From assembly GCA_934148015.1 (NCBI GenBank), contig CAKPCU010000004.1, forward strand, positions 10,800 to 74,799: 64,000 nucleotides of DNA, written 5' to 3'. The translations under genes and the position numbers were made by a program. Below the pieces are notes generated by a model. That model had not been told where the DNA came from. It did not search any database and saw only the letters and a program-made list of their open reading frames with translations. Positions 4,926 through 46,285 of this stretch are shown in pieces (within the stretch, counting starts at the first letter, position 1; each line of letters starts with the position of its first letter). The DNA comes from an uncultured Bacilli bacterium (lineage in GTDB: Bacteria; Bacillota_I; Bacilli_A; RF39; UBA660).

Positions 4926-5695
4926 AAAAGCCATTAAATAATAGTAGTGGTAAGAAAAAGAATATATTAATAAAAATAATAGTAATTTTTGTATTTATCT
5001 TTTTCTTTGTAAGCGTAATTGTTTTATCTGATAGAAAATACTTTTATATAGAAAAAACTTTTAAATGCATCACAAAAAAAATAAATTATTCTTTAGTTAG
5101 AAAATTATATAATAAAGAAAATAGTATTGGTAACGACGGATATATTAGTAAAATTAAGACATTAGAAAAGGAAAATAATGAACTTAAAGATATAATTGAT
5201 TTAAAAGGAAAAAATACGAATTATATGCCAGAAGTTGTAATAAGTAGAGCTAGCTATAATTGGTATAAAAAAATAGAAATTACTAATAATAATCACAATG
5301 ATAAAGAAAAGGTGCCCGTTATAAACCAATATGGATTAGTAGGTTTTGTTAGTAAGACTTCTAAAAGTGTTAATGAAGTTGAACTTTTAACAAATATGAA
5401 AAATAATTTAATTTCTGTTTTAATAGAAACTGATAATAAAGAAATATCTGGTGTTTTAAAATATTATGATAGTAAGAAAGGACTATTTATAGTGTCTGAT
5501 ATAATAGATAAAAATGAAATAAAAGATGGAGATAGGGTTGTTTTAAGTGGATATCAAAGTAATTATAAAGGAATTTTCGTTGGAAATGTTGCTAGTCAAG
5601 AAATTAATGACTATGGACTTACTAAAACAGTTTTGGTTAAATCAAATGTTAATTTTGATGATATAATGTATGTTTTTATGGTTGGTGAAAAATGA
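4922..5695 (+). CDS. mreC: Rod shape-determining protein MreC
   Basis: N-terminal TM, coiled coil (KIKTLEKENNELKDIIDLK), beta-rich C-terminal domain (GLVGFVSKTSKSVNEVELLT). ATGA overlap with radC. Confidence 0.75.
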   Translation: MKKPLNNSSGKKKNILIKIIVIFVFIFFFVSVIVLSDRKYFYIEKTFKCITKKINYSLVRKLYNKENSIGNDGYISKIKTLEKENNELKDIIDLKGKNTNYMPEVVISRASYNWYKKIEITNNNHNDKEKVPVINQYGLVGFVSKTSKSVNEVELLTNMKNNLISVLIETDNKEISGVLKYYDSKKGLFIVSDIIDKNEIKDGDRVVLSGYQSNYKGIFVGNVASQEINDYGLTKTVLVKSNVNFDDIMYVFMVGEK

Positions 5696-6165
5696 TTTTA
5701 ATGATAATTTTACTTATACTTTCATCATTTTTAGATGGCATATTACAAGTTATATTTAAAGATGTATTGCCTTTATTTTTTTTGGCTACTATAGTAGTTT
5801 TTTCTATAAAAAATAATAATAAATTATTTTATTATGTTATTATATTTTTATTTGGATTAATATATGGCCTATCATATACGTCTTTATTTTTTCTATATGC
5901 ATTTATATATGTATTTATAGCATACATACTAAGCTTTATAAGTAATAAAAATAATTATATAAAATTATTTTTTACTTATAATTTATCCATTTTAATGTAT
6001 ATAGTATTAATGTTTATTTTTTCATTTTATACTAATTATAATTTAATGAATATTATTTATTTATATTTTAAAAACTTACCATTAAATTATATATATTTTA
6101 CTATTATGTATCTGTTTATTAATACTTTATGTAATAATAGGAATAGATTAAATAAATATTCATAA
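5692..6165 (+). CDS. mreD: MreD-like polytopic membrane protein
   Basis: Small, very hydrophobic, translationally coupled to mreC (ATGA overlap). Call is mainly positional. Confidence 0.5.
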   Translation: MILMIILLILSSFLDGILQVIFKDVLPLFFLATIVVFSIKNNNKLFYYVIIFLFGLIYGLSYTSLFFLYAFIYVFIAYILSFISNKNNYIKLFFTYNLSILMYIVLMFIFSFYTNYNLMNIIYLYFKNLPLNYIYFTIMYLFINTLCNNRNRLNKYS

Positions 6166-6186
6166 AAATAAAATAGGTGATAAGAA

Positions 6187-6783
6187 ATGATTGATCAAAA
6201 TTCATTTAATTTGGATAAAAAAAAAGAGAAGAAATCATTAATAAAAAATTTAGTTTTTAGCATGATAATTAAAAGTTTAATTGTTGTGGTACTTTTTCTT
6301 GGATCACTAATATATATAAAACAAAGTAATGATAATAAAAATAAATTTAAAAATGTTGTATATAACAATTCTTTATCTTTTGCAAAAATATATGATGTTT
6401 ATAAAAAATATTTAGGTGATGTAATTCCATTTAAAAATATATTTAAAGACAATACCAAATTAGTATCTAGTGAAAAACTATCATATGAACAAATAAAAAA
6501 AGAAGATAATGGTTATATACTTAGTGTATCTAAAGATTATATAACACCTTCTATTACTAGTGGTATTATAGTAGAAAAAAAAGTAAGTTCAAAATATGAA
6601 AATGTAATTACTGTGCAAGATAAAAATGGGCTAAACATTACTTATGGATTAATAAAAAATACAAATGTTAAATTATATGATTATATAGAAAAAGGGGAAA
6701 TTATAGGACAAGCAAGTGAAGAATTATATTTAAGTTTTAAAAAGGATAATAAGTATTTATCTTATGAAAAAGTGCTTAAGTAA
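6187..6783 (+). CDS. Membrane-anchored degenerate LytM/M23-like protein (SpoIVFA-like position)
   Basis: TM anchor plus C-terminal segment GIIVEKK..ITVQDKNGLNITYGLIKNTNVKLYDYIEKGEIIGQ resembling a LytM fold. Overlaps the start of the M50 protease gene, as spoIVFA-spoIVFB do. Confidence 0.5.
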   Translation: MIDQNSFNLDKKKEKKSLIKNLVFSMIIKSLIVVVLFLGSLIYIKQSNDNKNKFKNVVYNNSLSFAKIYDVYKKYLGDVIPFKNIFKDNTKLVSSEKLSYEQIKKEDNGYILSVSKDYITPSITSGIIVEKKVSSKYENVITVQDKNGLNITYGLIKNTNVKLYDYIEKGEIIGQASEELYLSFKKDNKYLSYEKVLK

Positions 6784-7540
6784 AATAAATATATCACCTA
6801 TACTTTATATAGTGGTATTTTTTTCTTTAATATGTGGATTATTTAGAGAGATAATTGTATTTATATTGACGATAGTTATTCATGAATTAGGTCATGTTTT
6901 TGTATCGTATTTGTTTGGGTGGAATATTAAGAAAATTTCTTTTAATGTTTATGGAGGCTTTATTTCATATGATGAGGTTATTGATAAACCATTTATAGAA
7001 GAGTTATTAATAGCATTGGCAGGTTTTCTATTTCAAACAATATTTTTAATTTCATCTGCTTTTTTATACAAATTTAATATTATAGATGATAATATATTGT
7101 TTTTAGTTAAAAAATATTTTTTATCACTTTTTTTATTTAACTTAATACCAATTATTCCTTTAGATGGTTCTAAGATTTTAAGTGTTTTATTGAACATATT
7201 TTTTTCATATAAAAAGTCTCTTAAAATATTAAATTATATTTCTTTAGTATCATTAATTATAATATCTATTTTGATTATATATTATCATTTTACAATAGAA
7301 ATTAGTTATATAATAATATTTTCATTTTTAGTGAAAAATATAGTAGAAGGTTTTTATGAAGAAAAATATCTTTTTGCAAAGTTTTTGTTTCAAAGATATT
7401 CATTACCATCAAATTATTCAGAAAAAAATTATATTAATAATTATGATTTAGGAAAAATTAAAAGACAAAAAAATACTTATTTTTTAATTAATGGAAGATA
7501 CTTCAAAGAAGAAAATATTTTAAAGAAACTATTTGACTAA
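6764..7540 (+). CDS. spoIVFB: M50 site-2 metalloprotease (SpoIVFB-like, pro-sigma-K processing type)
   Basis: HELGH in a TM helix (VIHELGHVFVSY) and NLIPIIPLDGSKIL (NxxPxxxLDG). Position immediately upstream of rplU as in B. subtilis. Confidence 0.7.
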   Translation: MKKCLSKINISPILYIVVFFSLICGLFREIIVFILTIVIHELGHVFVSYLFGWNIKKISFNVYGGFISYDEVIDKPFIEELLIALAGFLFQTIFLISSAFLYKFNIIDDNILFLVKKYFLSLFLFNLIPIIPLDGSKILSVLLNIFFSYKKSLKILNYISLVSLIIISILIIYYHFTIEISYIIIFSFLVKNIVEGFYEEKYLFAKFLFQRYSLPSNYSEKNYINNYDLGKIKRQKNTYFLINGRYFKEENILKKLFD

Positions 7541-28266: not shown

Positions 28267-30000
28267 ATGAACGGTGCACAAATACCAAATAATGGTAGTA
28301 ATTTAAATAATGTTAATAACATGAACAGTAGTGTAAATAGTAATAATGTTAATACATCTAATAATATAAGTAATACTCCAAATACTAACAACTTGGATAA
28401 AAGAGCACTTGAAGAACAAAAAAGAAGAGAAAATATTGCTAAAAAACAAGCTGAATTTAATAAATATGTTCAAAAAGCTAGACAAGATGAAGCTAGAAGA
28501 TTTGAAGAACAAAAGAAAATTATCGCTGAAATGCAAAAGAAACAGCTTGAAGTAAATAAAAAAGAAGAAGAAAAAAAGAAGAAAATAGCCGAGATAGATG
28601 CTAAAAGTAAGAAAAGACAAAAACAATTGGAAGAAAGTGCCTCATCTAGTAAATTTAGTGATAAACTAAAAGCTTGGTATTTAAAAGCTTCTACACCTAA
28701 ATATAATGAACTTGAACTTAAGGCTAAAAAAGCTGTTTTAGAAGAACAATTTAAAGATGATAAAAATAATTTAGCTAGATTAAAAACACCAATACTATTT
28801 AAGTATAAAGCTAAAACACCAGATGGTAAGATAGTAACTGGTACTATGGATGCACTATCTAGAGTAGATATACATTCCTTTTTAACTCAGGAAGGTTATG
28901 AAGTATATGAAATATATGCCGTTAAGAATTCTTCTAATATAAACATAATGTCATTTAAGTTTAAAATATCTAAGCTTATATTCTGCTTATCTCAGTTATC
29001 TGCTTATTTAAAAGCTGGTATTGCTCTTGCTGATGCTGTTAAGTTAATTGAAAATCAAACTAAAAGCATGAAAGAAAAGAGAGTATGGAGAGCTGTTTAT
29101 TATGATTTATCAATGGGTGATAATTTATCTTCTGCTCTTGAAAAAAGAGGTAATGCTTATCCTAAGTTACTAATTAACATGATTAAAACAGCAGAGATGA
29201 CTGGTAATTTACCTGAAACTTTAGATGATATGATAGATTATTATACTGAAACTGAAACTACTAGAAAGCAAATGATTTCAGCTTTAATGTATCCTACAAT
29301 AGTTGTTATATTCGCAATAGCTGTTATAGTATTTATGCTTATATATATAGTTCCTAGTTTTGCTGGTATATTTAAAGATATGGGAACTGATGAAATTCCA
29401 GCTATTACTACATTCTTACTTAATTTAAGTGACTTTTTAGGTAAATATATACTTCAAATATCTATAGGTGTATTTTCAGTACTTCTTATATTTACACTTT
29501 TATATAAATACTATAAACCAGTTAGAAAAGTTCTTCAAATATTTGCAATGAAACTTCCTGTAATAGGTAATATAATTATATATAATGAAGTTACAATGTT
29601 TTCTAAGACATTTGCTAACCTTTTAAATCATAATGTATTTATAACAGATTCAATAGATGTATTATCTAAAATTACATCAAACGAAGTTTATAAGAAACTA
29701 ATTCATGATACTTCTGTTAATTTAACTAAGGGTGAATCTATTTCAGCATCATTTAAAGATCACTGGGCTTTTCCTTATATAGCATACCAAATGATATTAA
29801 CTGGTGAAAAAACTGGTAGGTTAGGACAAATGATGGAAAAAGTATCACAGTATTATCAAGAACAACATAGGACTTTAGTTAACCGTTTAAAGACTTTAAT
29901 TGAGCCTATATTAATAGTTGGTCTTGCTGTTATAGTTGGTGGTATACTTCTTGCAATAGTAGTTCCAATGTTCTCATTATATGATCAAGTATCATCATAG
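28267..30000 (+). CDS. pilC: Type IV pilus/T2SS platform protein (GspF/PilC family) with ~175-aa N-terminal extension
   Basis: Two GspF repeats and three TM segments from about aa 178 (FKYKAKTPDGKIVTG..). Residues 1-177 are Asn-rich, then K/E-rich coiled coil. Confidence 0.9.
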   Translation: MNGAQIPNNGSNLNNVNNMNSSVNSNNVNTSNNISNTPNTNNLDKRALEEQKRRENIAKKQAEFNKYVQKARQDEARRFEEQKKIIAEMQKKQLEVNKKEEEKKKKIAEIDAKSKKRQKQLEESASSSKFSDKLKAWYLKASTPKYNELELKAKKAVLEEQFKDDKNNLARLKTPILFKYKAKTPDGKIVTGTMDALSRVDIHSFLTQEGYEVYEIYAVKNSSNINIMSFKFKISKLIFCLSQLSAYLKAGIALADAVKLIENQTKSMKEKRVWRAVYYDLSMGDNLSSALEKRGNAYPKLLINMIKTAEMTGNLPETLDDMIDYYTETETTRKQMISALMYPTIVVIFAIAVIVFMLIYIVPSFAGIFKDMGTDEIPAITTFLLNLSDFLGKYILQISIGVFSVLLIFTLLYKYYKPVRKVLQIFAMKLPVIGNIIIYNEVTMFSKTFANLLNHNVFITDSIDVLSKITSNEVYKKLIHDTSVNLTKGESISASFKDHWAFPYIAYQMILTGEKTGRLGQMMEKVSQYYQEQHRTLVNRLKTLIEPILIVGLAVIVGGILLAIVVPMFSLYDQVSS

Positions 30001-30011
30001 GAGGTTATAAT

Positions 30012-30794
30012 TTGACTTTAGAAGTTTTAATAGGAACCATAATATTTATATTTGGACTAGTATTTGGTTCCTTTTATAATGTAGTAGGGTATAGACTACC
30101 TAACAATATGTCTTTAATATATCCTAATTCACACTGTCCAAAATGTAATCATGAACTTAAGTTTTATGAATTAGTTCCTGTTTTGTCTTATATATTTTTA
30201 GGTGGTAGATGTAAAAAATGTAAAGATAAAATATCTATAAAATATCCTATATTTGAACTTTTAACAGGTATATTGTTTTTATTATCATACATAGTATTTG
30301 GTTTAAATATAAAGTTTTTTATAGCAATAACATTTATATCAGTTTTAATAGTTATAACAATTAGTGATATAGAAAGCTTTATAATTCCAGATGAGGTTTT
30401 AATAACTGGGGTAATACTAATTATAATAGAATTAATTATTAAAATGCGTTTAGAAAATCTAAATGTATTAGAAGGACTTATTTATCCAGTATTAAATGGT
30501 ATTGCATCATTTACATTATTATATTTATTTAAATTATTTGGAGATAAAGTATTTAAAAAAGAAAGTTTAGGTGGGGGAGATATTAAATTATTGTTTGTTA
30601 TAGGTTTAGTATTAGGTTTTGATATGTCTATAGCATCAGTTTTTTTAGCTTCATTTATAGCACTACCATTATCTATTGTAAGCTTAATAAAAAATGATAA
30701 TAATATAATACCATTTGGACCATACTTATCACTTGCAAGCGTTATAATACTTCTTTTGGAATTAAATATAGATAAAATACTTATGTTTATATAA
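30012..30794 (+). CDS. pilD: Prepilin peptidase (A24 family, PilD/ComC)
   Basis: N-terminal CPKCNH..CKKCKD zinc motif, polytopic, catalytic GGGDIKL. TTG start. Confidence 0.9.
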   Translation: MTLEVLIGTIIFIFGLVFGSFYNVVGYRLPNNMSLIYPNSHCPKCNHELKFYELVPVLSYIFLGGRCKKCKDKISIKYPIFELLTGILFLLSYIVFGLNIKFFIAITFISVLIVITISDIESFIIPDEVLITGVILIIIELIIKMRLENLNVLEGLIYPVLNGIASFTLLYLFKLFGDKVFKKESLGGGDIKLLFVIGLVLGFDMSIASVFLASFIALPLSIVSLIKNDNNIIPFGPYLSLASVIILLLELNIDKILMFI

Positions 30795-30821
30795 AGTTCT
30801 ATTTTTAAAATAGAGCTTTTT
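30794..30821 (+). terminator. Terminator after pilD
   Basis: AAGTTCTATTT-TTA-AAATAGAGCTT (one G-T pair) followed by T run. Confidence 0.55.
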
Positions 30822-30859
30822 AAATTGTAACTCTAGTAACTGTTTTTAAAAAATAAAAA

Positions 30860-30883
30860 ATGCCCAATTTTTTACTAGGGCAT
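30860..30883 (-). terminator. Terminator after pilB (minus strand)
   Basis: ATGCCC..GGGCAT stem; on the minus strand it is followed by a long T run (complement of 30846-30860). Confidence 0.55.
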
Positions 30884-30889
30884 TTCTTT

Positions 30890-32308
30890 TTATATATCTA
30901 ACATTTCTGCATCAGAATTATTTCTTATATTACTAGGTGTTTGTTGCATATTTATATTATTATTAATCTGATTATTTAAAGTAGGAGTATTTCCTATGGC
31001 TGCATTATTATTTGTTGCTATATTAATATTAGGTACTGTATTAGTATTTGCTGCTATATTAGTAGTTCCATTATTATTTGCATTAGATGCCTTTATTTCT
31101 CCTTCTAGTACTATTTTTGTTGAAGAATCATCTAAATCTACAATTCTAAGTATTTCTTCTATAGTAGTAACATTTTGAAGTACTTTAGCTAAACCATCTT
31201 GAAGAAGAGTTTTAGTATCACCTGTATAAACAAGTTTTCTTAATTCTTCTTTAGGTACTTCATTTGCTATAGCATCTCTTATTTCTTGATTAATAACTAA
31301 TACCTCATGTATAGCGATACGACCTTTATAACCACCAACACATTCAGGACATCCTTCAGCGTAAGCAAGTTCATTTATATCTATACCTAAATTAGCTTTA
31401 ATTAGCTTTTTTTCATATTCAATAGCAGGTCTTTTTTTCATACAATGTGGACAAATTCTTCTAGCTAATTTTTGTGATACTATACCATTTAATGAACTAG
31501 CTAAAAGATAAGTTTCAACTTCCATATCAGTTAAACGTTCAATTGTATTTAATGCATTATTAGTATGAAGTGTAGATAGTACTAAGTGACCAGTAATAGA
31601 TGCTCTAACTGCTATTTTAGCTGTTTCATCATCTCTTATTTCTCCGATCATTATTATATCAGGGTCTTGTCTTAAAATAGAACGAAGTACGTTAGCAAAC
31701 GTAAGACCAATTTCACTATTAACTTGTATTTGGTTAATACCATCAATACCCATTTCAACTGGATCTTCAACGGTAACTAGATTAACTTCAGGAGTGTTAA
31801 GTAACTGTAAAAGAGAGTATACAGTAGTAGATTTACCAGAACCAGTAGCACCAGTTACTAATATAATTCCATTTGGTTCTTTAATTAAATCTTTCATTTT
31901 TCTTAAATTATCAGGAGAAAATCCTAAACTTTCAAGACCTTTAAGTGAAGCTGTATAATCAAGTATACGAATAACTATTTTTTCTCCTTCATTAGTAGGA
32001 AGAGAAGATACACGCATATCTAAATTTATATCACGAATAGTAGTTTTAATAGCACCATCTTGAGGAAGTCTAGACTCTGTAATATCCATACCAGATATTA
32101 TTTTTAATCTAGCTACTAGATTTTTTCTTATGTTTTCTGGAATAATTGCATAATCTATTAAAATACCATCTATTCTAAATCTAACCTTTATATGATCTTC
32201 ATATGGATCAAAGTGTATATCACTAGCACCAGATTCAGCAGCACTATATAATATTTCAGTAACTACATCTGTTATTGGTAATTTAGTAAAATCTATTTGT
32301 TTTAACAT
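30890..32308 (-). CDS. pilB: Type IV pilus assembly ATPase (GspE/PilB/ComGA family) with Asn-rich C-terminal tail
   Basis: Walker A GATGSGKST, Asp/His boxes, tetracysteine CPHC..CPEC. The last ~80 aa are N/T/I low complexity. Confidence 0.92.
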   Translation of the reverse strand: MLKQIDFTKLPITDVVTEILYSAAESGASDIHFDPYEDHIKVRFRIDGILIDYAIIPENIRKNLVARLKIISGMDITESRLPQDGAIKTTIRDINLDMRVSSLPTNEGEKIVIRILDYTASLKGLESLGFSPDNLRKMKDLIKEPNGIILVTGATGSGKSTTVYSLLQLLNTPEVNLVTVEDPVEMGIDGINQIQVNSEIGLTFANVLRSILRQDPDIIMIGEIRDDETAKIAVRASITGHLVLSTLHTNNALNTIERLTDMEVETYLLASSLNGIVSQKLARRICPHCMKKRPAIEYEKKLIKANLGIDINELAYAEGCPECVGGYKGRIAIHEVLVINQEIRDAIANEVPKEELRKLVYTGDTKTLLQDGLAKVLQNVTTIEEILRIVDLDDSSTKIVLEGEIKASNANNNGTTNIAANTNTVPNINIATNNNAAIGNTPTLNNQINNNINMQQTPSNIRNNSDAEMLDI

Positions 32309-32447
32309 AAATACCTCCCCTTATTATTCCTTTATACTTTTATAAAAATAAAATCATTATTATTCTTATCTTTACTCTAGATTTTATTATAATAATATTA
32401 TATAATATATTTTAGAAGATATCAAGTATTTGAAAGGGTGATAACTA

Positions 32448-33005
32448 GTGAAAAAGAATAATAAAGGTTTTTTCTTAGCAGAAACAATAGTAGTATTAGC
32501 TCTTGTTACAACAGTAGTAGTCTTTGTATCTGCAAACGTACCTAATCTTTATAAAAATTATAAATTACAAATAGAAAGTTATGATAGAACAGAAGATATA
32601 TATTTACTTAAGGCTATATATGAAGCTAATGAAGAAAAAATAAAGAAAGCTACAGAAAGTGATTGTTCCGGCACTGAAATAGGAGCTAAAATTTATAATA
32701 ATGGAGAGTTGCCATCTTCAGGTGGAGATAGCACTGGTGCTGGATATTATTTTGAGAATGATGATTTGAAACTACCAAACGACTATAAATTCGACAGTAA
32801 ATTTTATCTTACTAGTTATTTAGTTACACCTTCTGTATCTGGAGATTATAACTTTAACAAATATTTAAAAAGAGTGAGGAAGACATCTAACTTTCAAACT
32901 GATTATAGATTAATTGGAAAACTAGTAAATGGTGGTAAAATTACTTATGCATCAATAAGGATTGATAATCCAAATCCTAATAGAAGATGTAATCTTGGAG
33001 GCTAA
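32448..33005 (+). CDS. Minor pilin-like protein (prepilin-type N-terminus)
   Basis: MKKNNKG|FFLAETIVVLALV has Gly-1 and Glu+5. GTG start after AAGGGTGA. Confidence 0.7.
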   Translation: MKKNNKGFFLAETIVVLALVTTVVVFVSANVPNLYKNYKLQIESYDRTEDIYLLKAIYEANEEKIKKATESDCSGTEIGAKIYNNGELPSSGGDSTGAGYYFENDDLKLPNDYKFDSKFYLTSYLVTPSVSGDYNFNKYLKRVRKTSNFQTDYRLIGKLVNGGKITYASIRIDNPNPNRRCNLGG

Positions 33006-33007
33006 TT

Positions 33008-34156
33008 ATGAAGAAATTAAATAAAAAAGGTGTTACATTAATAGAATTAATAGTTAGTTTTGCGATAGTTAGTGTTGCTATGATATATTTTTATCAAACT
33101 ATAGTTGATTTACATAGAATGTATAAAAATTCAAATAAAGCAACTGATGAATTTGTAAATAAAGATTATGCTTTAAGAGTACTTGATGCCTGGGCTACTA
33201 AATCAGGTAATAATTTAGACAATATTAAATCTACTGCAAGCGTTCAAACTAAAATTTGTGAAAAATACAGTATGTTTTGTGCTGATACTAAAACAGATGT
33301 AGATAGTACTAATATTGATTTTAAAAAAGTTACATTAAAAGATGAAGATGAAAAAATTGAAGTTATATACTATAAGTATAATAAATCTTTAATTACTGAA
33401 CAACTTGAATATTTAGGTGCATTAGTAGATGGTAATATCACGGATGTGTCAAAATTTGACAGTATAAAAGATAAAACTGATGTTTTGGAAGTTACTGTTG
33501 ACTCAGACACCAAAAAAATAAATTATATTATTAAAGATAGTGTTGGTAATGAAAAATACAGTATAACAAATAAAGATACAATAAATGAAATAATAAAAAA
33601 TAATGTGAAAGATAAACAAGAAACAAACATAAATACAGAAGTTCAAAAGTTAATGGGTCAAAATTATAACATTATAGAAAGCATTGAAATTGTTAAAGAA
33701 GATAGCGATGAATCAAAAAAAGAATATGCAAGAGTATATAATGTAGTAGATTCCTCAGGTAACGTGATAGCTAAAAATATTTATCAGATAGAAATAGTAG
33801 TAAATTTAGAGAATATGAATACTGAAGAGCTTAATAAAGAGCACATAATAAATGGAGTTAATGTGAAATCTATTAAATTTAATAAAGAAGGTTTATACAA
33901 ATTAAAATATTTAGTTTCAGCAGAGGATAAAAAATGTATGATTAGGTTAGATAGTACTACAAGCATACATTTTAATAAAGATAAGATTATTCAATTAGAT
34001 GGATTAACTATAAGTGATGTAAGCCGTGAAATAGAAGATAAAAATGTATATATAACACTTAATAAAATAAAATTAGAACAAACATCTGAGCTAAATTATA
34101 TGTCTTTTGGTGGAAAATGTACAATTAAACTAGTAGAAGCCTACAAATATAAATAA
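33008..34156 (+). CDS. Large minor pilin-like protein (prepilin-type N-terminus)
   Basis: MKKLNKKG|VTLIELIVSFAIVSV followed by a 350-aa unrecognised domain. Confidence 0.7.
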   Translation: MKKLNKKGVTLIELIVSFAIVSVAMIYFYQTIVDLHRMYKNSNKATDEFVNKDYALRVLDAWATKSGNNLDNIKSTASVQTKICEKYSMFCADTKTDVDSTNIDFKKVTLKDEDEKIEVIYYKYNKSLITEQLEYLGALVDGNITDVSKFDSIKDKTDVLEVTVDSDTKKINYIIKDSVGNEKYSITNKDTINEIIKNNVKDKQETNINTEVQKLMGQNYNIIESIEIVKEDSDESKKEYARVYNVVDSSGNVIAKNIYQIEIVVNLENMNTEELNKEHIINGVNVKSIKFNKEGLYKLKYLVSAEDKKCMIRLDSTTSIHFNKDKIIQLDGLTISDVSREIEDKNVYITLNKIKLEQTSELNYMSFGGKCTIKLVEAYKYK

Positions 34157-38920: not shown

Positions 38921-39472
38921 ATGAAAATAATAAGTGGAAAATATAAAGGAAAAGTACTAAAAGGATTTGATATTAATGGTACTAGACCTACAATGGATAG
39001 AGTAAAAGAATCAGTATTTGCAATGATACAAGATTATATAAGGGATAGTATAGTATTAGACTTATATTCTGGAAGTGGTAATTTAGCTATTGAATCTATT
39101 AGTAATAATTGTAAATATGCATACTTAGTAGATATAAATAAAAAAGCTATTAATATTATCAATGATAATATTAATAGCCTTAAAATAGATAATTGTAAAA
39201 TGATAAATGATAGTGCTATAAGTTCTTTAAATAATTTTATAAATAATAATATATCATTTGATATTATCTTTTTAGATCCACCATATAATACTGATGAAAT
39301 AGATAAAACATTAACTATAATAAATAGTAATATATGCTTATTAAATGATAATGCAATTATAATATGTGAAACTACTATAAATATAGACTATACTAAATAT
39401 AATAATTTAACTATATATAAACAAAGAAAATATGGACAAAAAAATGTTACTATATTAAAGAATGTAAATTAA
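38921..39472 (+). CDS. rsmD: 16S rRNA (guanine966-N2)-methyltransferase RsmD
   Basis: RPTMDRVKESVFAMI, DLYSGSGNLAIES, IFLDPPY. Confidence 0.85.
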   Translation: MKIISGKYKGKVLKGFDINGTRPTMDRVKESVFAMIQDYIRDSIVLDLYSGSGNLAIESISNNCKYAYLVDINKKAINIINDNINSLKIDNCKMINDSAISSLNNFINNNISFDIIFLDPPYNTDEIDKTLTIINSNICLLNDNAIIICETTINIDYTKYNNLTIYKQRKYGQKNVTILKNVN

Positions 39473-39485
39473 AAGATAATAATAA

Positions 39486-39514
39486 TTGAATAATTAATAA
39501 TTAAATGTTATTAT
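39486..39514 (+). promoter_or_regulatory. Candidate SigA promoter of the 306-aa pilin gene
   Basis: TTGAAT-N17-TATTAT with TG at -15/-14. Confidence 0.45.
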
Positions 39515-39535
39515 TATAATACAAGGAGTGTTTTT

Positions 39536-40456
39536 ATGAAGAGAAAAAGTAATGGATTTACACTGATAGAATTATTAGCAGTAATAGTAATACTTGGTAT
39601 TATAATAACAATTGTAGTAACAAATGTAGTTAAATATATTGGAAAAGCAAGAGAAGGTGCATTTAAAGATACTTATTCTAAAGTACTTAGAGATGTAAAA
39701 AATAAAATAGCTTTAAAGAATTTAGGAGATACTACAGAAGAAGTGGAGTGTAGAGATTATTCAGAATGTGCTAGTTTATATGATGTATCAACAAATGATG
39801 TAAATCTTATAGTAACTAAAGTAAATGAAAATTACATAGTTAATATGGAAGGAAAAGGTAGCTATGCTGGTATATCAATGGAAGAATCTACTTGTCCTAA
39901 GAATTCATATTGTAGTACAAATTCTATCTCCTCAAATATTTCATCAAATGGAGAAGAAAAAGAAACTAATATAGGAAGTTTACTAGTTTTAAATGTAAAG
40001 AATAAAAATCCTATAAATTGTAGTAGTGGTGAAGCTTGTAGTAAGTATGGAGAAAAAATTACAGAAATAATATCTAGTACTGGTGGATATGCGGTAACTC
40101 AAGAGAGTGAAATAATAATATATGATAAAAATGGAAATATATTAACTACTACTGATCAAGCCAAAGCTCAAAAGTATAAGAATTTGATAAGTTTGACTAG
40201 AGGTGCAGATAATGATAAAGTTTATAATGATAATACACGTATTACATGTGATAATGAAAATGCTTATTATAAAAGAAGCTCGAAATATAATAACATTGAT
40301 GAAGTTTATTTATATAATGAGAAATTGATTAATTCCGAATATAAATATTTATATTATCTTAACGAAGATAAAACTAAAAAAACACGATTGTTTATATTTA
40401 AATGTGCTGGAAAATTTTCAAATACTCATAGTAATTATAAAGAATGGACTAGCTAG
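39536..40456 (+). CDS. Type IV pilin-like protein, 306 aa (large C-terminal domain)
   Basis: MKRKSNG|FTLIELLAVIVILGIIITIVVTNVVKYI. The N-terminal protein sequence matches the downstream cassettes but uses different codons. Confidence 0.85.
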   Translation: MKRKSNGFTLIELLAVIVILGIIITIVVTNVVKYIGKAREGAFKDTYSKVLRDVKNKIALKNLGDTTEEVECRDYSECASLYDVSTNDVNLIVTKVNENYIVNMEGKGSYAGISMEESTCPKNSYCSTNSISSNISSNGEEKETNIGSLLVLNVKNKNPINCSSGEACSKYGEKITEIISSTGGYAVTQESEIIIYDKNGNILTTTDQAKAQKYKNLISLTRGADNDKVYNDNTRITCDNENAYYKRSSKYNNIDEVYLYNEKLINSEYKYLYYLNEDKTKKTRLFIFKCAGKFSNTHSNYKEWTS

Positions 40457-40473
40457 AAAAACATAAATTAATA

Positions 40474-40501
40474 AACAGCATTTTAGTAATGTTGTTTTTT
40501 T
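40474..40501 (+). terminator. Rho-independent terminator after the 306-aa pilin gene
   Basis: AACAGCAT-TTTAGTA-ATGTTGTT (one G-T pair) followed by T7. It insulates cassette A from upstream transcription. Confidence 0.6.
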
Positions 40502-40521
40502 GTACTTTCTTTTCTTAATTC

Positions 40522-40690
40522 TATTTTTTAAGCAACTATCTTAAGGATAAAAAGTGTTTAAAAAATAAAAGAAAGAAGGAAAAAATTATGAAAAAAAATA
40601 AAAAAGGTTTTACTTTAATTGAATTACTAGCTGTTATTGTTATACTTGGTATTATTATTACTATCGTTGTAAGTAACGTTGTTAAGTATA
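40522..40690 (+). repeat. Pilin 5' module copy L1 (leader + RBS + codons 1-34)
   Basis: ..AAGCAACTATCTTAAGGATAAAAAGTGTTTAAAAAATAAAAGAAAGAAGGAAAAAATTATGAAAAAAAATAAAAAAGGTTTTACTTTAATTGAATTACTAGCTGTTATTGTTATACTTGGTATTATTATTAC... Near-identical to L2-L4. The inner end is approximate. Confidence 0.9.
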
Positions 40691-41085
40691 TTAATAAAGC
40701 AAGAAAGGGTTCTTATGTTGATGCATACAAGGTTTTAGTAAAAGATATGCAAACACAATTAATGGCTAATGAGATGGACAATGGAACAGCTAGTTTAGCG
40801 ATATGTAATGATAATAGTACGGTTTCTGAAATTAAAAAACGTGTAAATAAAAATGATTATAAGGGTTCTTATAAAGAAGAAACTTTAAAAATGCAAGTAG
40901 AAGCATGGAAAACTGGTGAAAAATTAAATGGGTACACTGTTACTATTAATCCGGGAAGTAATTTTAGTTCTGTAACTAGTATTACATGTCCTGTTGTTAG
41001 TTCTTCGGGTGTTAAAAGTGCTTGTGCTGGAGCTGAAATTAGAATACACTTAGCATTAGATGGTACTATAACAAGTGGAAGATAA
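40588..41085 (+). CDS. Type IV pilin, variant cassette A (165 aa)
   Basis: MKKNKKG|FTLIELLAVIVILGIIITIVVSNVVKY constant N-terminus. Body about 90% identical to cassette A'. Confidence 0.9.
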   Translation: MKKNKKGFTLIELLAVIVILGIIITIVVSNVVKYINKARKGSYVDAYKVLVKDMQTQLMANEMDNGTASLAICNDNSTVSEIKKRVNKNDYKGSYKEETLKMQVEAWKTGEKLNGYTVTINPGSNFSSVTSITCPVVSSSGVKSACAGAEIRIHLALDGTITSGR

Positions 41086-41086
41086 T

Positions 41087-41132
41087 TAAAAAAATACTAT
41101 AATGAAGATCAATATTTCATTATAGTATTTTT
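41087..41132. terminator. Bidirectional terminator T1 shared by cassettes A and B
   Basis: A run, perfect 13-bp stem ATACTATAATGAA/TTCATTATAGTAT, loop GATCAATAT, T run. Same element as 43338..43383. Confidence 0.8.
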
Positions 41133-41143
41133 ATTTGTGTTTC

Positions 41144-41611
41144 TTATTCAGAATCTTTTAATTCTCCTTCTGGACTCATATACAAAATTACTGTGCCTTT
41201 AGCTATAGGACTACCATTACCACATTTCGCATGATTAGGACAATATTTTCCACTAATGTCTAAATCTTTAAAACTATTTGTACCTTTTATTGTAATTACA
41301 TGATTACTTTTACCAGTTTGAACAGCAGCAATTATTATATCCATGTTTGATGAATCATAATCATAGATTCCTTTGCATGCAGTAGCTGTAGTACATGTTG
41401 TTACAGTTCCATCGCCTCCTTCAACTGCTTCTGACATAAGGGAATTTTGAACATTTTTAACAAATACACCAACTGCATCTTTATAAGAACCCTGCCTAGC
41501 TTGTTTAACATACTTAACAACATTACTTACAACAATAGTAATAATAATACCAAGTATAACAATAACAGCTAGTAATTCAATTAAAGTAAAACCTTTTTTA
41601 TTTTTTTTCAT
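41144..41611 (-). CDS. Type IV pilin, variant cassette B (155 aa)
   Basis: Same 34-aa N-terminus; distinct C-terminal body related to B' (roughly half the residues shared by eye). Confidence 0.9.
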   Translation of the reverse strand: MKKNKKGFTLIELLAVIVILGIIITIVVSNVVKYVKQARQGSYKDAVGVFVKNVQNSLMSEAVEGGDGTVTTCTTATACKGIYDYDSSNMDIIIAAVQTGKSNHVITIKGTNSFKDLDISGKYCPNHAKCGNGSPIAKGTVILYMSPEGELKDSE

Positions 41612-41673
41612 ATTTTTTTCCTTCTTTCTTTTATTTTTTAAACACTTTTTATCCTTAAGATAGTTACTTAAAT
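41509..41673 (-). repeat. Pilin 5' module copy L2 (inverted relative to L1 and L3)
   Basis: The reverse complement reads TTTAAGTAACTATCTTAAGGATAAAAAGTGTTTAAAAAATAAAAGAAAGAAGGAAAAAAATATGAAAAAAAATAAAAAAGG... The inner end is approximate. Confidence 0.9.
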
Positions 41674-41683
41674 TTTATATAAT
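41655..41683 (+). promoter_or_regulatory. Candidate promoter of the recombinase gene, straddling the L2 boundary
   Basis: TTAAGA (inside repeat L2)-N17-TATAAT (unique DNA), 28 nt upstream of the int ATG. Confidence 0.4.
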
Positions 41684-41710
41684 AGCTTCCTAGAAAGGAG
41701 CAAATACTAT

Positions 41711-42649
41711 ATGTTAATAATTAAAAGAATAAAATATAAAGATTATTTATATGAATGGTTAATTAATAAAAAAAGTTTTATTAAAGAATCAACTTATGCA
41801 AATTATTCTAATATTGTATTTAGTTATATAACACCTAAACTTGGTAATTATTATATAAGTGAATTAAATAATAAAATAATACAAGATTATATATTATATC
41901 TACATAATACTAAAGGATTAGCGATTAAAACAATAAAGGATATAATTATGATAGTAAAAGAAAGTATAAAGTGTGCTATTAATAATAATATAATTAAAAA
42001 TTTTGATTTAAAATTTAACTATCCTAAAAGTAATAATATTAATCATATGTATGTATTAACAAAAAGAGAACAAAATATATTAATGGAATATGTATTAAAT
42101 AACATTAATAATAAAAGTATAGGTATTTTAATATCATTACTTTTAGGTATTAGAATTGGAGAATTATGTGCATTAAAGTGGGAAGATATAGACTTTAAAA
42201 AGAAAATATTACATGTTAATAAAACTTTACAAAGAATATATATAAAAGACATAGATAAAAATTTATCTAAGGTTATTGTATCTCTTCCTAAAACTAACAG
42301 CTCTAATAGGGATATTCCAATAAATAAAGAATTATTAGATATACTTAAAACATTAAAAACTAATAAAGAAGATTATATATTAACTGGAAATAATAAAAAT
42401 ACGGAACCTAGAGTATATAGAAGTTATTTTAATACAGTTTTAAAAAAGAATAGTATAAAACGTATTAAGTTTCATTCACTTAGACATACGTTTGCAACTA
42501 ATTGTATATCTCTTGGAATAGATTATAAAACTGTAAGTGAACTATTAGGACATTCTAACATAAATATCACTTTAAATTTATATGTACATCCAAGATTATC
42601 TCAAAAGAAAAAATGTATAGAAAAAATATATAAAAATGTTATTAAATAA
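41711..42649 (+). CDS. Tyrosine site-specific recombinase (phage-integrase/Xer family)
   Basis: N-terminal SAM-like core-binding domain. Catalytic signature R (GIRIGELCALKWEDID), HSLRHTFAT (HxxR), LGHSNINITLNLYVH (H..Y). Confidence 0.9.
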   Translation: MLIIKRIKYKDYLYEWLINKKSFIKESTYANYSNIVFSYITPKLGNYYISELNNKIIQDYILYLHNTKGLAIKTIKDIIMIVKESIKCAINNNIIKNFDLKFNYPKSNNINHMYVLTKREQNILMEYVLNNINNKSIGILISLLLGIRIGELCALKWEDIDFKKKILHVNKTLQRIYIKDIDKNLSKVIVSLPKTNSSNRDIPINKELLDILKTLKTNKEDYILTGNNKNTEPRVYRSYFNTVLKKNSIKRIKFHSLRHTFATNCISLGIDYKTVSELLGHSNINITLNLYVHPRLSQKKKCIEKIYKNVIK

Positions 42650-42690
42650 CGTAAAATTTACGTAAAATATATAATAAAAATTCAAACTAA

Positions 42691-42719
42691 TTGACAATGA
42701 AATTTATTGATGATATTAT
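42691..42719 (+). promoter_or_regulatory. Near-consensus SigA promoter inside the central segment, currently reading into cassette B'
   Basis: TTGACA (42691-42696)-N17-TATTAT (42714-42719). About 150 nt upstream of the B' ATG. Confidence 0.6.
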
Positions 42720-42807
42720 TAAATCAGAATATAAAGGAGGCGAGATTTGAAGTATAAGTTTTGTTTAATTAAGACAAAATAAATTAAATGGTTAACACAC
42801 ATATATC

Positions 42808-42972
42808 TTTAAGTAACTATCTTAAGGATAAAAAGTGTTTAAAAAATAAAAGAAAGAAGGAAAAAATTATGAAAAAAAATAAAAAAGGTTTTACTTTAAT
42901 TGAATTACTAGCTGTTATTGTTATACTTGGTATTATTATTACCATTGTTGTAAGTAATGTTGTTAAGTATAT
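42808..42972 (+). repeat. Pilin 5' module copy L3
   Basis: TTTAAGTAACTATCTTAAGGATAAAAAGTGTTTAAAAAATAAAAGAAAGAAGGAAAAAATTATGAAAAAAAATAAAAAAGG... The inner end is approximate. Confidence 0.9.
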
Positions 42973-43336
42973 AAGTCAATCAAAACAAGGTGCCTTTAAA
43001 GATGCAGTTGGTGTATTTATAAAGAATACACAAACCCAAGTACTGGCTTCTGATATAAGTGGTATAGGTAGTATGACAACATGTACTAAAAATTCTGAGT
43101 GTAAAAGTAAATATCAGTATGATACAGCGAATATGGATATAACAGTAAGTCAAAATACTGGTAAAAACTATAAAATAGTTATAACAGGAATAGGTGGTTT
43201 TAATAATGTTGATATGGCTGAAACAGATAAATATGGTAATAAAAAATATTGTCCAAAAGAAGCTGCCGAGTGTACTAAGAATGGTGTAATCACTTTATAT
43301 ATGAATAGCGACGCTGAAATAAAAGAAGCTGAATAA
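42869..43336 (+). CDS. Type IV pilin, variant cassette B' (155 aa)
   Basis: ATG 42869 sits behind the shared RBS. The ORF-track start at 42788 merely reads through the leader module. Same 34-aa N-terminus. Confidence 0.9.
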   Translation: MKKNKKGFTLIELLAVIVILGIIITIVVSNVVKYISQSKQGAFKDAVGVFIKNTQTQVLASDISGIGSMTTCTKNSECKSKYQYDTANMDITVSQNTGKNYKIVITGIGGFNNVDMAETDKYGNKKYCPKEAAECTKNGVITLYMNSDAEIKEAE

Positions 43337-43337
43337 T

Positions 43338-43383
43338 AAAAATACTATAATGAAGATCAATATTTCATTATAGTATTTTTTTT
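43338..43383. terminator. Bidirectional terminator T2 shared by cassettes B' and A'
   Basis: Identical 13-bp stem and loop to T1, in the same absolute orientation. Confidence 0.8.
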
Positions 43384-43385
43384 AA

Positions 43386-43856
43386 TTATCTTCCACTTGT
43401 TATAGTACCATCTAATGCTAAGTGTATTTTAATTTCAGCCCCAGAACAAGCATCTTCAACAGGACATGTAATACTAGTTACAGAACTAAAATTACTTCCT
43501 GGATTAATAGTAACAGTGTACCCATTTAATTTTTCACCGGTTTTCCATTCTTCTACTTGCATTTTTAAAGTTTCTTCTTTATAAGAACCCTTATAATCAT
43601 CTTCAACTACACATTTTTTAGTTGCCTCATTATCATTACATGTCACTAAACTAGCTGTTCCATTGTCCATCTCATTAGCCATTAATTGTGTTTGCATATC
43701 TTTTACTAAAACCTTGTATGCATCAACATAAGAACCCTTTCTTGCTTTATTAATATACTTAACAACGTTACTTACAACGATAGTAATAATAATACCAAGT
43801 ATAACAATAACAGCTAGTAATTCAATTAAAGTAAAACCTTTTTTATTTTTTTTCAT
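43386..43856 (-). CDS. Type IV pilin, variant cassette A' (156 aa)
   Basis: First 70 aa identical to cassette A. Differs in two short patches only. Confidence 0.9.
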   Translation of the reverse strand: MKKNKKGFTLIELLAVIVILGIIITIVVSNVVKYINKARKGSYVDAYKVLVKDMQTQLMANEMDNGTASLVTCNDNEATKKCVVEDDYKGSYKEETLKMQVEEWKTGEKLNGYTVTINPGSNFSSVTSITCPVEDACSGAEIKIHLALDGTITSGR

Positions 43857-43922
43857 AATTTTTTCCTTCTTTCTTTTATTTTTTAAACACTTTTTATCCT
43901 TAAGATAGTTGCTTAAAAAATA
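43754..43922 (-). repeat. Pilin 5' module copy L4 (inverted relative to L1 and L3)
   Basis: Reverse complement is identical to L1 from TATTTTTTAAGCAACTATC.. through codon 34 and beyond. The inner end is approximate. Confidence 0.9.
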
Positions 43923-44010
43923 AGAATGAATGTTATTTTTAGAGTTGTTTTACTTTCTTTTTCTTATTTATTACTGTATAATTAGATAGTAGGAAATGGA
44001 GGCGAGATAT

Positions 44011-44931
44011 ATGTTATTAATTGGTTCTCATGTATCTTTTAAAAAAGATGATCAATTGCTAGGTAGTTTAAAGGAAGCTTTAAGTTATGGATCTAATTGC
44101 TTTATGTTTTATACTGGGGCTCCTCAAAATACTAGTAGGTGTAATATAGATGATTCATTAACTAAGAAAGCTATTAAGTTAATGGAAGAAAATAATATTG
44201 ATATTAATAATTTAGTAGTTCATGCTCCTTATATTATTAACCTTGCTAATAATGAAAAAGAGCAAAATTATTTATTTGCTATCAATTTCTTAAAAGAGGA
44301 AATTAAAAGGGTAGAACATCTTGGTGTTAAAAGGCTTGTTTTACATCCAGGGAGCTTTGTTAAACTTGATTTGGTAACTGGTATTAATAATGTTATTAAT
44401 GCTTTAAATGAGGTAATAGATGCTAATACAAACGTAAATATATGTTTAGAGACTATGGCAGGTAAGGGTAGCGAGATATGTTTTAAATTAGAGCATATTA
44501 AGAAAATAATTGATGGGGTTAAATATAATGATAAATTAATGGTATGTTTAGATACTTGTCATTTAAATGATGCAGGTTATGATATGAGTAATTTTGATTC
44601 GTTTTTAGATGATTTTGATAAGTTAATTGGGATTAATAAAATAGGTTGTGTTCATGTTAATGATTCTAAAAATATTATTTATTCTAAAAAAGATAGGCAT
44701 GAAAATATAGGTTTTGGTACTATTGGTTTTGATTCATTAATTAATATTATATATAATAAAAAATTAGAAGATGTTCCTAAAATATTAGAAACACCTTATA
44801 TAAGTTTGGAAGATAATACAAAGGTAAGAAGTTTGGCACCTTATAAATTTGAAATTGAAATGATTAAGAATAGAGAGTTTAATCCTAATTTATATAGTGA
44901 TGTAAGAAGTTATTATAAAAAAAATAGTTAG
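44011..44931 (+). CDS. nfo: Endonuclease IV
   Basis: IGSHVS, HAPYIINLA, LHPGS, LETMAGKG, CLDTCH, HVNDSK metal-ligand blocks. ATG 44011 lies 8 nt after GGAGG. Confidence 0.9.
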   Translation: MLLIGSHVSFKKDDQLLGSLKEALSYGSNCFMFYTGAPQNTSRCNIDDSLTKKAIKLMEENNIDINNLVVHAPYIINLANNEKEQNYLFAINFLKEEIKRVEHLGVKRLVLHPGSFVKLDLVTGINNVINALNEVIDANTNVNICLETMAGKGSEICFKLEHIKKIIDGVKYNDKLMVCLDTCHLNDAGYDMSNFDSFLDDFDKLIGINKIGCVHVNDSKNIIYSKKDRHENIGFGTIGFDSLINIIYNKKLEDVPKILETPYISLEDNTKVRSLAPYKFEIEMIKNREFNPNLYSDVRSYYKKNS

Positions 44932-44977
44932 TTTACTTTGAATGTTTAATTTAGTATAATTGTAAAAGGTGATATAT

Positions 44978-46285
44978 ATGTTTGAAAGTTTAACGGAAAA
45001 ATTAGAAAATGCTGTTAGTAAGTTAAAAGGATATGGAACAATTACAGAGGATAATATCAGTGATGTTATAAGGGAAGTTAGGCTTGCTTTATTAGAAGCT
45101 GATGTTAATTACAAAGTTGTTAAAGAGTTTACTAATAAAGTAAAAGAAAAGGCTTTGGGCGAAGAGGTTAAAAAGTCTTTAAAACCTGGTGATGTGTTTT
45201 TAAAAATATTAAAAGATGAATTATTAGAATTACTAGGGAATAAAGAATCATCTATTGATTTATCTAGTAATCCTAGTATTATAATGTTAGTTGGTCTTCA
45301 AGGATCAGGTAAAACTACAACTATAGGAAAATTAGGTAATTTACTTAGAAAGAAAAATGCCAAAAAACCTATATTTATAGCAGCAGATGTATATAGACCA
45401 GCTGCAATTGATCAGTTAAAACAATTAGGACGTGAACTTAATATTGAGGTTTATGATGAGGGTCAAAATAACGCAGTTGATGTTGTTTGTAATGGTGTTA
45501 ATTATGCTAAAGAAAAAGGGTATGATTTAATTTTAGTAGATACTGCGGGACGTTTGCACGTTGATGATACTTTAATGAATGAATTAAAGGAAATAGAGGA
45601 AAAAGTAAAACCAAATGAGGTAATATTAGTAATTGATGCTATGATAGGTCAAGATGCAATAAACGTAATTAATGGTTTTAATGATTCTCTTAAACTAACT
45701 GGTACAATTTTAACTAAAATGGATGGTGATACTAAGGGTGGTGTTGCTTTATCTGTTAAGCATTTAACTGGTGTACCAATTAAATTTATTGGTGTATCTG
45801 AAAAATTAGATGGTCTTGATTATTTTGATCCAGAACGTATGGTATCTAGAATACTTGGTAATGGAGATATTATGTCTATAATAGAGAAGGCTGAAGCTGT
45901 TATTGATGAAAAAGAAGCTATGACTACAGCGAAGAAGATTCAGTCTGGTAAAATGGATTTAGAAGACTTCTTGTCTCAATTAAAGCAAATAAGAAAGCTT
46001 GGACCATTAGAAAACTTAATTAAACTTCTTCCAGGAGCTAGAAAGCTTGGACTTAATAATATTAGTATAGATCCAAAAGAGTTTGCTAAGTTAGAAGCTA
46101 TAATATCTTCTATGACATTAAAAGAAAGAAAAAATCCTGATATTATAAAAGCATCTAGAAAACAGAGAATTGCAAATGGAAGTGGTACATCTGTTCAAGA
46201 AGTTAATAAATTACTAAACCAATTTGAACAAATGAAAAAGATGATGAAGATGATGAAAAATGGTAGTTTTAAGATGCCGTTTTAA
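44978..46285 (+). CDS. ffh: Signal recognition particle protein Ffh
   Basis: MFESLTEKL.., GLQGSGKTTT, DTAGR, Met-rich M domain. ATG 44978. Confidence 0.97.
   Translation: MFESLTEKLENAVSKLKGYGTITEDNISDVIREVRLALLEADVNYKVVKEFTNKVKEKALGEEVKKSLKPGDVFLKILKDELLELLGNKESSIDLSSNPSIIMLVGLQGSGKTTTIGKLGNLLRKKNAKKPIFIAADVYRPAAIDQLKQLGRELNIEVYDEGQNNAVDVVCNGVNYAKEKGYDLILVDTAGRLHVDDTLMNELKEIEEKVKPNEVILVIDAMIGQDAINVINGFNDSLKLTGTILTKMDGDTKGGVALSVKHLTGVPIKFIGVSEKLDGLDYFDPERMVSRILGNGDIMSIIEKAEAVIDEKEAMTTAKKIQSGKMDLEDFLSQLKQIRKLGPLENLIKLLPGARKLGLNNISIDPKEFAKLEAIISSMTLKERKNPDIIKASRKQRIANGSGTSVQEVNKLLNQFEQMKKMMKMMKNGSFKMPF

Follow-up and report, generated by a model that had tools for sequence, protein, structure and literature searches.

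A recombinase-and-promoter segment that inverts among four type IV prepilin cassettes, a probable single-promoter pilin switch in an uncultured gut member of the Bacilli

At the Mycoplasma loci named vpma, vsp and vsa, site-specific inversions at sites within the conserved 5' untranslated region (5'UTR) place silent genes behind a single promoter, with a tyrosine recombinase encoded in the locus, and the vpma recombination site spans positions −1 to −72 (PMC2268961). Here we describe a locus of related design that carries four type IV prepilin genes. It lies in a stretch of 64,000 nucleotides (nt) of contig CAKPCU010000004.1 (positions 10,800 to 74,799, forward strand; GenBank assembly GCA_934148015.1) from an uncultured gut member of the Bacilli. 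We call this whole low-GC stretch (G+C content ∼25%) the window. The gene order between 39.5 and 44 kb is a pilin-like gene of 306 amino acids (aa; + strand), cassette A (+), cassette B (−), the recombinase gene int (+), cassette B' (+), cassette A' (−) and, right of A', an apurinic/apyrimidinic (AP) endonuclease gene (+) that we call nfo. The cassettes A, B, B' and A' stand in slots 1 to 4 and begin within the inverted repeats L1 to L4 respectively; a promoter, P, lies between int and B'. We are all but certain that the central segment, with int and P, undergoes DNA inversion, and we think it likely that the locus is a multi-cassette inversion switch in which this one promoter selects the type IV pilus subunit. 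Switches of this kind are already known, and what we describe is a new example rather than a new principle.

The closest systems in logic are the single-promoter shufflons vpma of Mycoplasma agalactiae and vsp of Mycoplasma bovis (recombinases Xer1 and Mbr). There, as here, the locus comprises several complete paralogous surface-protein genes whose 5'UTR and signal or N-terminal region are conserved, recombination takes place at a site in the 5'UTR (within the ∼59 nt that precede the ATG in our case), and a tyrosine recombinase gene is part of the locus. The cargo differs, being lipoproteins in the mycoplasmas and type IV prepilins here; the recombinase gene and promoter are central here and flip as a unit; and the host, an uncultured gut member of the Bacilli, possesses the cell-shape protein MreC and reads TGA as stop.

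An earlier, sequence-only reading of this DNA had called the arrangement Hin-like. In the H segment of Salmonella, which acts on fljBA, a recombinase gene and an outward promoter 3' of it lie in an invertible segment of ∼1 kb with inverted repeats; the invertase, Hin, belongs to the serine class, requires Fis and an enhancer, and switches one operon on and off. The likeness is one of topology, in that int (41711–42649) and the outward promoter P (42691–42719) both lie inside 41673–42807 and invert as a unit. It does not extend further, since int is a tyrosine recombinase and not a member of the Hin family, and both orientations face a gene, so that the segment toggles two genes rather than turning one on or off, with further inversions exchanging cassettes. 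Another parallel is the sap locus of Campylobacter fetus, in which, as Dworkin and Blaser reportedly described in 1997, a single promoter sits on an invertible segment between opposed full-length cassettes and nested inversions can place any of these behind it. The sap system encodes S-layer proteins, uses conserved 5' regions as inverted repeats and is RecA-dependent, with no dedicated recombinase gene in the segment. Our locus shares the promoter-bearing segment between opposed cassettes and the conserved 5' regions as inverted repeats, and differs in having a recombinase gene inside the segment and a short conserved core at all sites. Type IV pilins are also diversified by DNA inversion in the R64/IncI shufflon (Rci) and by Piv of Moraxella, the latter not a tyrosine recombinase. 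In both, recombination takes place within the pilin coding sequence and exchanges C-terminal segments downstream of an N-terminus and promoter that stay fixed, whereas here the crossover lies upstream of the ATG and whole genes move, each with its own open reading frame (ORF), ribosome-binding site (RBS) and leader. More generally, pilin is among the families enriched at predicted programmed inversions (PMC9881135).

The evidence for inversion comes from natural variants. Exact-protein look-ups returned some two dozen metagenome contigs that belong to the same species and come from human gut samples, those of the Hadza among them. Onto these contigs we mapped segments of the window; all of the variant contigs come from short-read metagenome assemblies. 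The window arrangement is found in 13 contigs at the junctions that they cover, the exceptions being L008, L085, L112, L096 and L097. L008 (ERZ27287274) has only 41673–42807 inverted, the full 1,135 bp at 100% identity, with the promoter end abutting B and the 5' end of int abutting B'. This is exactly the inversion (there given as 41674–42807) that the sequence-only reading had proposed would carry P from B' to B. The first difference between L2 and L3 lies 2 nt upstream of the ATG, and the L008 leaders are hybrids at this point, with the L3-type base in the leader on the int 5' side and the L2-type base in the other; the crossover can therefore be placed in the 59 nt that run from where homology begins to position −2, inside the 5'UTR. 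These are the first 59 nt of a 227-nt repeat, corresponding to 42808–42866 in the window. Because the crossover lies upstream of the start codon, it is whole genes that move.

A different exchange is seen in L085 (ERZ27287105 k141_438131, 19.7 kb; positions 3957–7040), in which B' is joined to slot 4 and A' to the left flank, and no int is present. The B'–slot 4 junction runs over 129 identical nt, shorter than the k-mer of 141 given in the contig name, and we take it to be a real L3×L4 exchange, one compatible with a recombination site in the 5'UTR; the absence of int may reflect either a deletion strain or collapse of the assembly over the 294-nt identity of L1 and L4. The same junction disposes of the idea that a C/T difference between the outer sites (L1, L4) and the inner sites (L2, L3) is a barrier that makes two nested switches, given that it joins B', an inner cassette, to the outer slot 4.

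In L112 (ERZ4559498 NODE_1914, positions 300–2520, corresponding to about 41965–42807 of the window plus flanks) the segment stands in the flipped orientation, and a deletion has left only the C-terminal 200 aa of int. The ends of this deletion are joined within AAAGTGT, which occurs both in the leader core and inside int at 41968–41974 of the window. The sequence of P is unchanged and reads via the leader into an intact 151-aa pilin allele, while the pilin in the left slot, slot 1, is out of frame, its ATG being followed by A7 rather than A8, a difference that at 5× coverage could equally be a sequencing error. L112 is a natural locked variant, and its junction suggests an aberrant site-specific event and hints at the region of cleavage. 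In the remaining two exceptions, L096 (2034–2636) and L097 (1403–1954), B lies tail-to-tail with A' beside the right flank (41010–41143 and 43337–43461 of the window).

What such inversions would do depends on P. Its −35 element, TTGACA (42691–42696), is separated by a 17-nt spacer from TATTAT (42714–42719), and a TG at 42711–42712, not remarked on in the sequence-only reading, makes the −10 extended. That reading had named P the only near-consensus promoter of the array, and a consensus scan finds it to be the sole 11/12 match within 39000–45200. Both strands of the window together hold ten sites matching at 11/12 or better, among which P alone has a TG; comparison with the ORF list places most of the other nine just 5' of ORF starts, and the score thus seems to follow genuine promoters of this genome. 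The pattern TTGACA-N14-TGN-TAWWAT occurs once in the window against 0.02 expected by chance. Promoter-like sites in the region are not above chance overall (48 found, 52 expected from shuffled sequence), and only the top match is meaningful. Scans of the array and the window reveal no candidate of comparable quality 5' of L1, L2 or L4, in keeping with the earlier remark that L1, L4 and the shared leader have just weak −35/−10 candidates.

The promoter also stands out between species. We compared three diverged lineages with pilin cassettes around int, L011 (int 89% identical), L103 (91%) and L102 (84%). TTGACA, the 17-nt spacing and the TG are kept in all three, and the −10 is TATTAT or TATCAT. 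Pairwise identity is 90% over the last 20 nt of the int 3' coding region, 56–67% over the 41 nt from the int stop to the −35, 86–90% from the −35 to the −10, and 83–87% from the promoter to L3; from the rise at P we conclude that the footprint starts at the −35. The sequences 5' of slot 4 vary between species, whereas P is conserved. The palindrome ACGTAAAATTTACGT, which had been suggested as an operator or accessory site, falls in the drifting part between the int stop and the −35. We do not retain that suggestion: the palindrome is not conserved in L011, L102 and L103, where just a loose direct repeat YGTAAA is left, and its fold is weak.

We propose that int acts at a target site within the leaders, with the crossover in the ∼59 nt upstream of the ATG, so that each inversion would shift a whole gene with its RBS among the four upstream slots. 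An exchange of whole genes together with their RBS can affect the phenotype only where transcription differs between slots, and the slot 3' of int would be the only one to carry a strong sigma-A promoter, namely P with its extended −10. Recombination of L2 with L3 would flip the 1.1-kb int and P segment and make P read into B instead of B', the arrangement seen in L008; L3×L4 would put A' behind P, the junction being that seen in L085; and L1×L2 followed by L2×L3 would put A behind P, a route not seen among the contigs. The predicted outcome is one dominant pilin per cell in a heterogeneous population. Such body swaps had been put forward before, and they are borne out as far as the joining of B' to the L4 slot and not for the L1×L2 route to A; the accompanying count, that any of the four bodies can be brought behind P in at most two inversions, is correct.

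Several observations weigh against this single-promoter switch. The contigs that show a P-linked gene or the junction of B in slot 2 with int are in the window state in 13 of 14 cases, with P beside B only in L008, while in L112 P adjoins a different pilin allele in a rearranged strain; L008 is also the one contig to show a pure flip, and the two orientations are seen in different samples. It could be argued that the variant contigs are assembly artefacts generated by the repeats and that the locus is static, as every variant comes from a short-read metagenome assembly and the identity of L1 and L4 exceeds the read length, making the join of the left flank to A' in L085 a possible collapse. 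We consider this explanation highly improbable, for the longest uninterrupted identity of L2 and L3, 75 nt, and the 129-nt bridge from B' to slot 4 both fall below the k-mer of 141 that the names of L008 and L085 give, the variants L008, L085, L096, L097 and L112 come from independent samples and assemblers, and the hsdS-linked relatives of the locus, described below, vary in the same way. Another question is what drives the inversions. L096 and L097 imply an inversion of the B–int–B' block via the 3' ends of A and A' and their terminators, which cannot arise at the leader site, and general recombination therefore also acts on the locus. Given this and the length of the repeats (227–294 nt at 86–99% identity), the flips themselves might be due to RecA-type homologous recombination between long inverted repeats, as in C. 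fetus sap, with int not the catalyst. That is quite improbable in our judgement: the L008 crossover is confined to the opening 59 nt of a repeat 227 nt long, the short core is kept across species and in the hsdS-linked relatives, where the repeats are only 60–84 nt, every lineage has the recombinase gene within the invertible unit, and the L112 deletion fuses the core to the look-alike AAAGTGT within int. The position of int, the behaviour of its clade and the site-like crossover all point to int as the catalyst.

The remaining doubts concern expression. All four cassettes might be transcribed, be it by weak promoters of their own, by flanking promoters or as read-through, with P only boosting one of them or mainly serving another purpose, and the inversions would then alter relative pilin levels or be without phenotype. 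Weak −35/−10 candidates are indeed present elsewhere, for the DNA is AT-rich and sites matching at 9–10/12 are frequent in it; transcripts of the 306-aa pilin gene could run on over the modest terminator ahead of L1 into slot 1; the four ORFs are intact in nearly all contigs; and L085, if it is a real genome, retains two intact cassettes, A' and B', without P or int. We read both the activity of P and the silence of slots 1, 2 and 4 from the DNA sequence. Nevertheless, transcription of all four cassettes is in our view unlikely, given that nothing comparable to P precedes L1, L2 or L4, that the DNA upstream of slot 4 is not conserved between species while P is, and that exchanging whole genes would have no phenotypic effect unless slot expression differs; in L112, too, the gene behind P is intact and that in slot 1 frameshifted. 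We therefore retain the single-promoter switch as the likely model.

The product of int has the residues R148, H255-x-x-R258, H281 and Y291, and NCBIfam returned generic Xer-like matches only, below the cut-offs. The core CTTAAGGATAAAAAGTG occurs in the four leaders and nowhere else in the window, and in seven leaders from two species the homology starts at the same TTTAAG and all share CTTAAGGATAAAAAGTG. The int gene has a promoter candidate of its own, noted earlier as TTAAGA-N17-TATAAT with its −35 in L2 and present as described at 41655–41683. Its −10 is invariant in four lineages and its −35 variable; because the −35 lies in the repeat core, the candidate would keep working in both orientations, and the overlap could, speculatively, allow autoregulation.

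The nearest relatives of int outside pilin loci (65–66% identity) occur in related gut Bacilli, at Type I restriction-modification loci (L012, 4786–8228; L013, 1–2373; and L117–L126), with the gene order hsdR, hsdM, hsdS (reverse strand), int, hsdS. An int segment of ∼1.1 kb lies there between perfect inverted repeats of just 60–84 nt, which extend over the 5'UTR and opening codons of two hsdS genes that face outward. Our int is thus closely related to hsdS-shufflon recombinases, whose inverted repeats contain CTTAAGGA...GTG; the core of these repeats is related to the pilin core and takes the form CTTAAGGAY...GTG, as AACTTAAGGACTAGAAAAGTGG or AACTTAAGGATTGGAAAGTG. A TG-extended −10 (TGATATAAT, TGGTACAAT or TGATATACT) lies 3' of int, just before the right repeat, and samples differ in the side of int on which whole hsdS genes, or 5' halves of them, are located. 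In these loci hsdM and one hsdS converge, and a promoter flip may determine which hsdS is expressed. The hsdS shufflons differ from the pilin locus in cargo, which consists of hsdS specificity genes, and in extra mid-gene repeats that shuffle half-genes; the pilin locus has 60-nt leaders and four cassettes, its cargo being four prepilins with the N_methyl motif. More distant recombinase homologues (at most 55% identity, L014–L030) include none with closely flanking inverted repeats and are therefore uninformative on the module. From these comparisons the int-plus-promoter toggle looks like an ancestral module of this recombinase clade, with pilins as new cargo.

The coordinates of the locus and its features are collected in Table 1. 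The positions of P, the palindrome and the int promoter candidate are as the sequence-only reading had given them.

Table 1. Features of the pilin inversion locus and of the associated pilus genes, in window coordinates
Feature	Coordinates	Strand	Remarks
Type IV pilus machinery: PilC-like, prepilin peptidase, PilB-like ATPase, further pilin-like genes	28267..34156	.	T2SSF, Peptidase_A24, T2SSE and N_methyl matches
306-aa pilin-like gene	39536..40456	+	N_methyl motif; fixed left flank, outside shufflon
Hairpin and U-run, probable intrinsic terminator insulating slot 1	40473..40504	+	10-bp stem, −8.5 kcal/mol, z = −2.2, then U7
L1 repeat: 5'UTR and N-terminal coding part of A	40522..40815	+	Core CTTAAGGATAAAAAGTG 40540-40556; inverted repeats I1 and I4
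Cassette A, complete type IV prepilin, 165 aa	40588..41085	+	N_methyl motif; MKKNKKG/FTLIE leader
A/B palindromic bidirectional terminator	41090..41132	.	18-bp stem, −16.6 kcal/mol, A-run and T-run at sides
Cassette B, complete type IV prepilin, 155 aa	41144..41611	-	N_methyl motif, prepilin leader
L2 repeat: 5'UTR and N-terminal coding part of B	41446..41672	-	Core 41643-41659
Candidate int promoter TTAAGA-N17-TATAAT	41655..41683	+	10/12 match; −35 inside L2 repeat core
Central invertible segment with int and promoter, 1,135 bp of unique DNA	41673..42807	.	Inverted at 100% identity, full length, in L008; flipped in L112
int, tyrosine recombinase, 312 aa	41711..42649	+	Phage_integrase (2.6e-28), with a SAM-like N-terminal domain
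15-bp palindrome ACGTAAAATTTACGT, probably without function	42649..42663	.	Present; lost in L011, L102, L103; weak fold
Promoter P, TTGACA-N17-(TGA)TATTAT, extended −10	42691..42719	+	Best match in array; kept in three lineages; predicted start ∼42726
Shine-Dalgarno (SD)-like AAAGGAGGCGAGATTT near predicted transcript 5' end	42733..42748	+	Invariant in four lineages
Small 5'UTR hairpin TTTTGTTT...AAGACAAAA	42759..42779	+	Arms conserved, loop variable (alignment); energy alone not significant
L3 repeat: 5'UTR and N-terminal coding part of B'	42808..43056	+	Core 42821-42837; L008 crossover within 42808-42866
Cassette B', 155 aa, behind P in window orientation	42869..43336	+	N_methyl motif, prepilin leader
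B'/A' palindromic bidirectional terminator	43337..43385	.	−17 kcal/mol, z = −6.2
Cassette A', 156 aa, 86% identical to A	43386..43856	-	N_methyl motif, prepilin leader
L4 repeat	43629..43922	-	99% identical to L1 over 294 nt; core 43888-43904

A repeat finder identifies the four long inverted repeats (227–294 nt, 86–99% identity), and the leaders of the four prepilin ORFs are identical over ∼60 nt, followed by 135–230 nt of shared coding sequence. The cassettes form two tail-to-tail pairs with a bidirectional terminator inside each. All four start with MKKNKKG/FTLIELL, a class III signal peptide (G−1, F+1, E+5), and a TIGR02532 domain is present; B, B' and A' have two cysteine pairs, and A has three cysteines. 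They fit the type IV pilin pattern, which further includes a hydrophobic N-terminal helix and a C-terminal disulfide loop. A and A' are 86% identical overall but 99% identical in the first 294 nt, which suggests recent gene conversion. Each cassette also begins with ATG-A8-T-A6 (40588–40606, 41593–41611, 42869–42887 and 43838–43856), and slipped-strand phase variation at this tract could be a second layer of control (compare the A7 in the slot-1 gene of L112). To the left, the 306-aa pilin-like gene adjoins slot 1 in every contig compared. The hairpin ahead of L1, of which the stem-loop proper occupies 40473–40497, had been described as a good terminator; the hairpin and the U7 that follows it are present, but at −8.5 kcal/mol and uncalled by the consensus scan, it is better described as plausible yet modest.

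Downstream of P, AAAGGAGGCGAGATTT and the small hairpin would be parts of a 5'UTR of ∼143 nt, where they perhaps act as an mRNA stabiliser. An Rfam scan of 39300–44200 returned nothing credible for known RNA elements, such as a cyclic di-GMP (c-di-GMP) riboswitch, in this 143-nt 5'UTR. We rejected an 11-codon ORF after the SD-like AAAGGAGG as a leader peptide, its start codon being lost in L011 and L103, and a likeness of the P region to the region upstream of nfo (shared GGAGGCGAGAT), as the alignment score of 31 is within the shuffle range (maximum 37). An in-frame ATG at 42788, in the unique DNA of slot 3, lengthens B' to 182 aa via a stop-free leader (42788–42868); it is kept in relatives but lacks an SD sequence and is probably unused.

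A set of type IV pilus genes, also upstream of polC, lies 8–12 kb upstream of the cassettes, which are therefore most simply read as alternative major subunits; their size, too, would fit the major pilus subunit. Within this set the PilC-like protein (577 aa) has a long N-terminal extension, the PilB-like ATPase is encoded on the opposite strand, and there are pilin-like proteins of 185 and 382 aa.

Few studies deal with the type IV pili of Gram-positive gut commensals; we know of no programmed variation of their subunits, and found none in the literature searched. We tentatively suggest, stopping just short of calling it probable, that a portable toggle (a tyrosine recombinase gene with an outward-facing extended −10 promoter, flanked by inverted sites in the 5'UTR) is common to the hsdS and pilin loci and has been re-used, passing from the switching of methylation specificity to that of pilus subunits. 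To our knowledge, and within the literature searched, type IV pili of a Gram-positive-type bacterium would here show programmed multi-cassette antigenic variation for the first time. If the toggle is portable in this way, the expressed hsdS would likewise be picked by promoter flip.

If the single-promoter model holds, an abundant uncultured lineage of the human and animal gut varies its pilus surface by DNA inversion, which would bear on adhesion, on immune or phage evasion and on how metagenome assemblies are read; assemblies of this lineage need care because contigs break and differ at the locus. The link to hsdS suggests a compact recombinase-plus-promoter module that can move between very different cargo genes, and such a module would help in the search for further phase-variable loci and offer a natural model for building two-state genetic switches.

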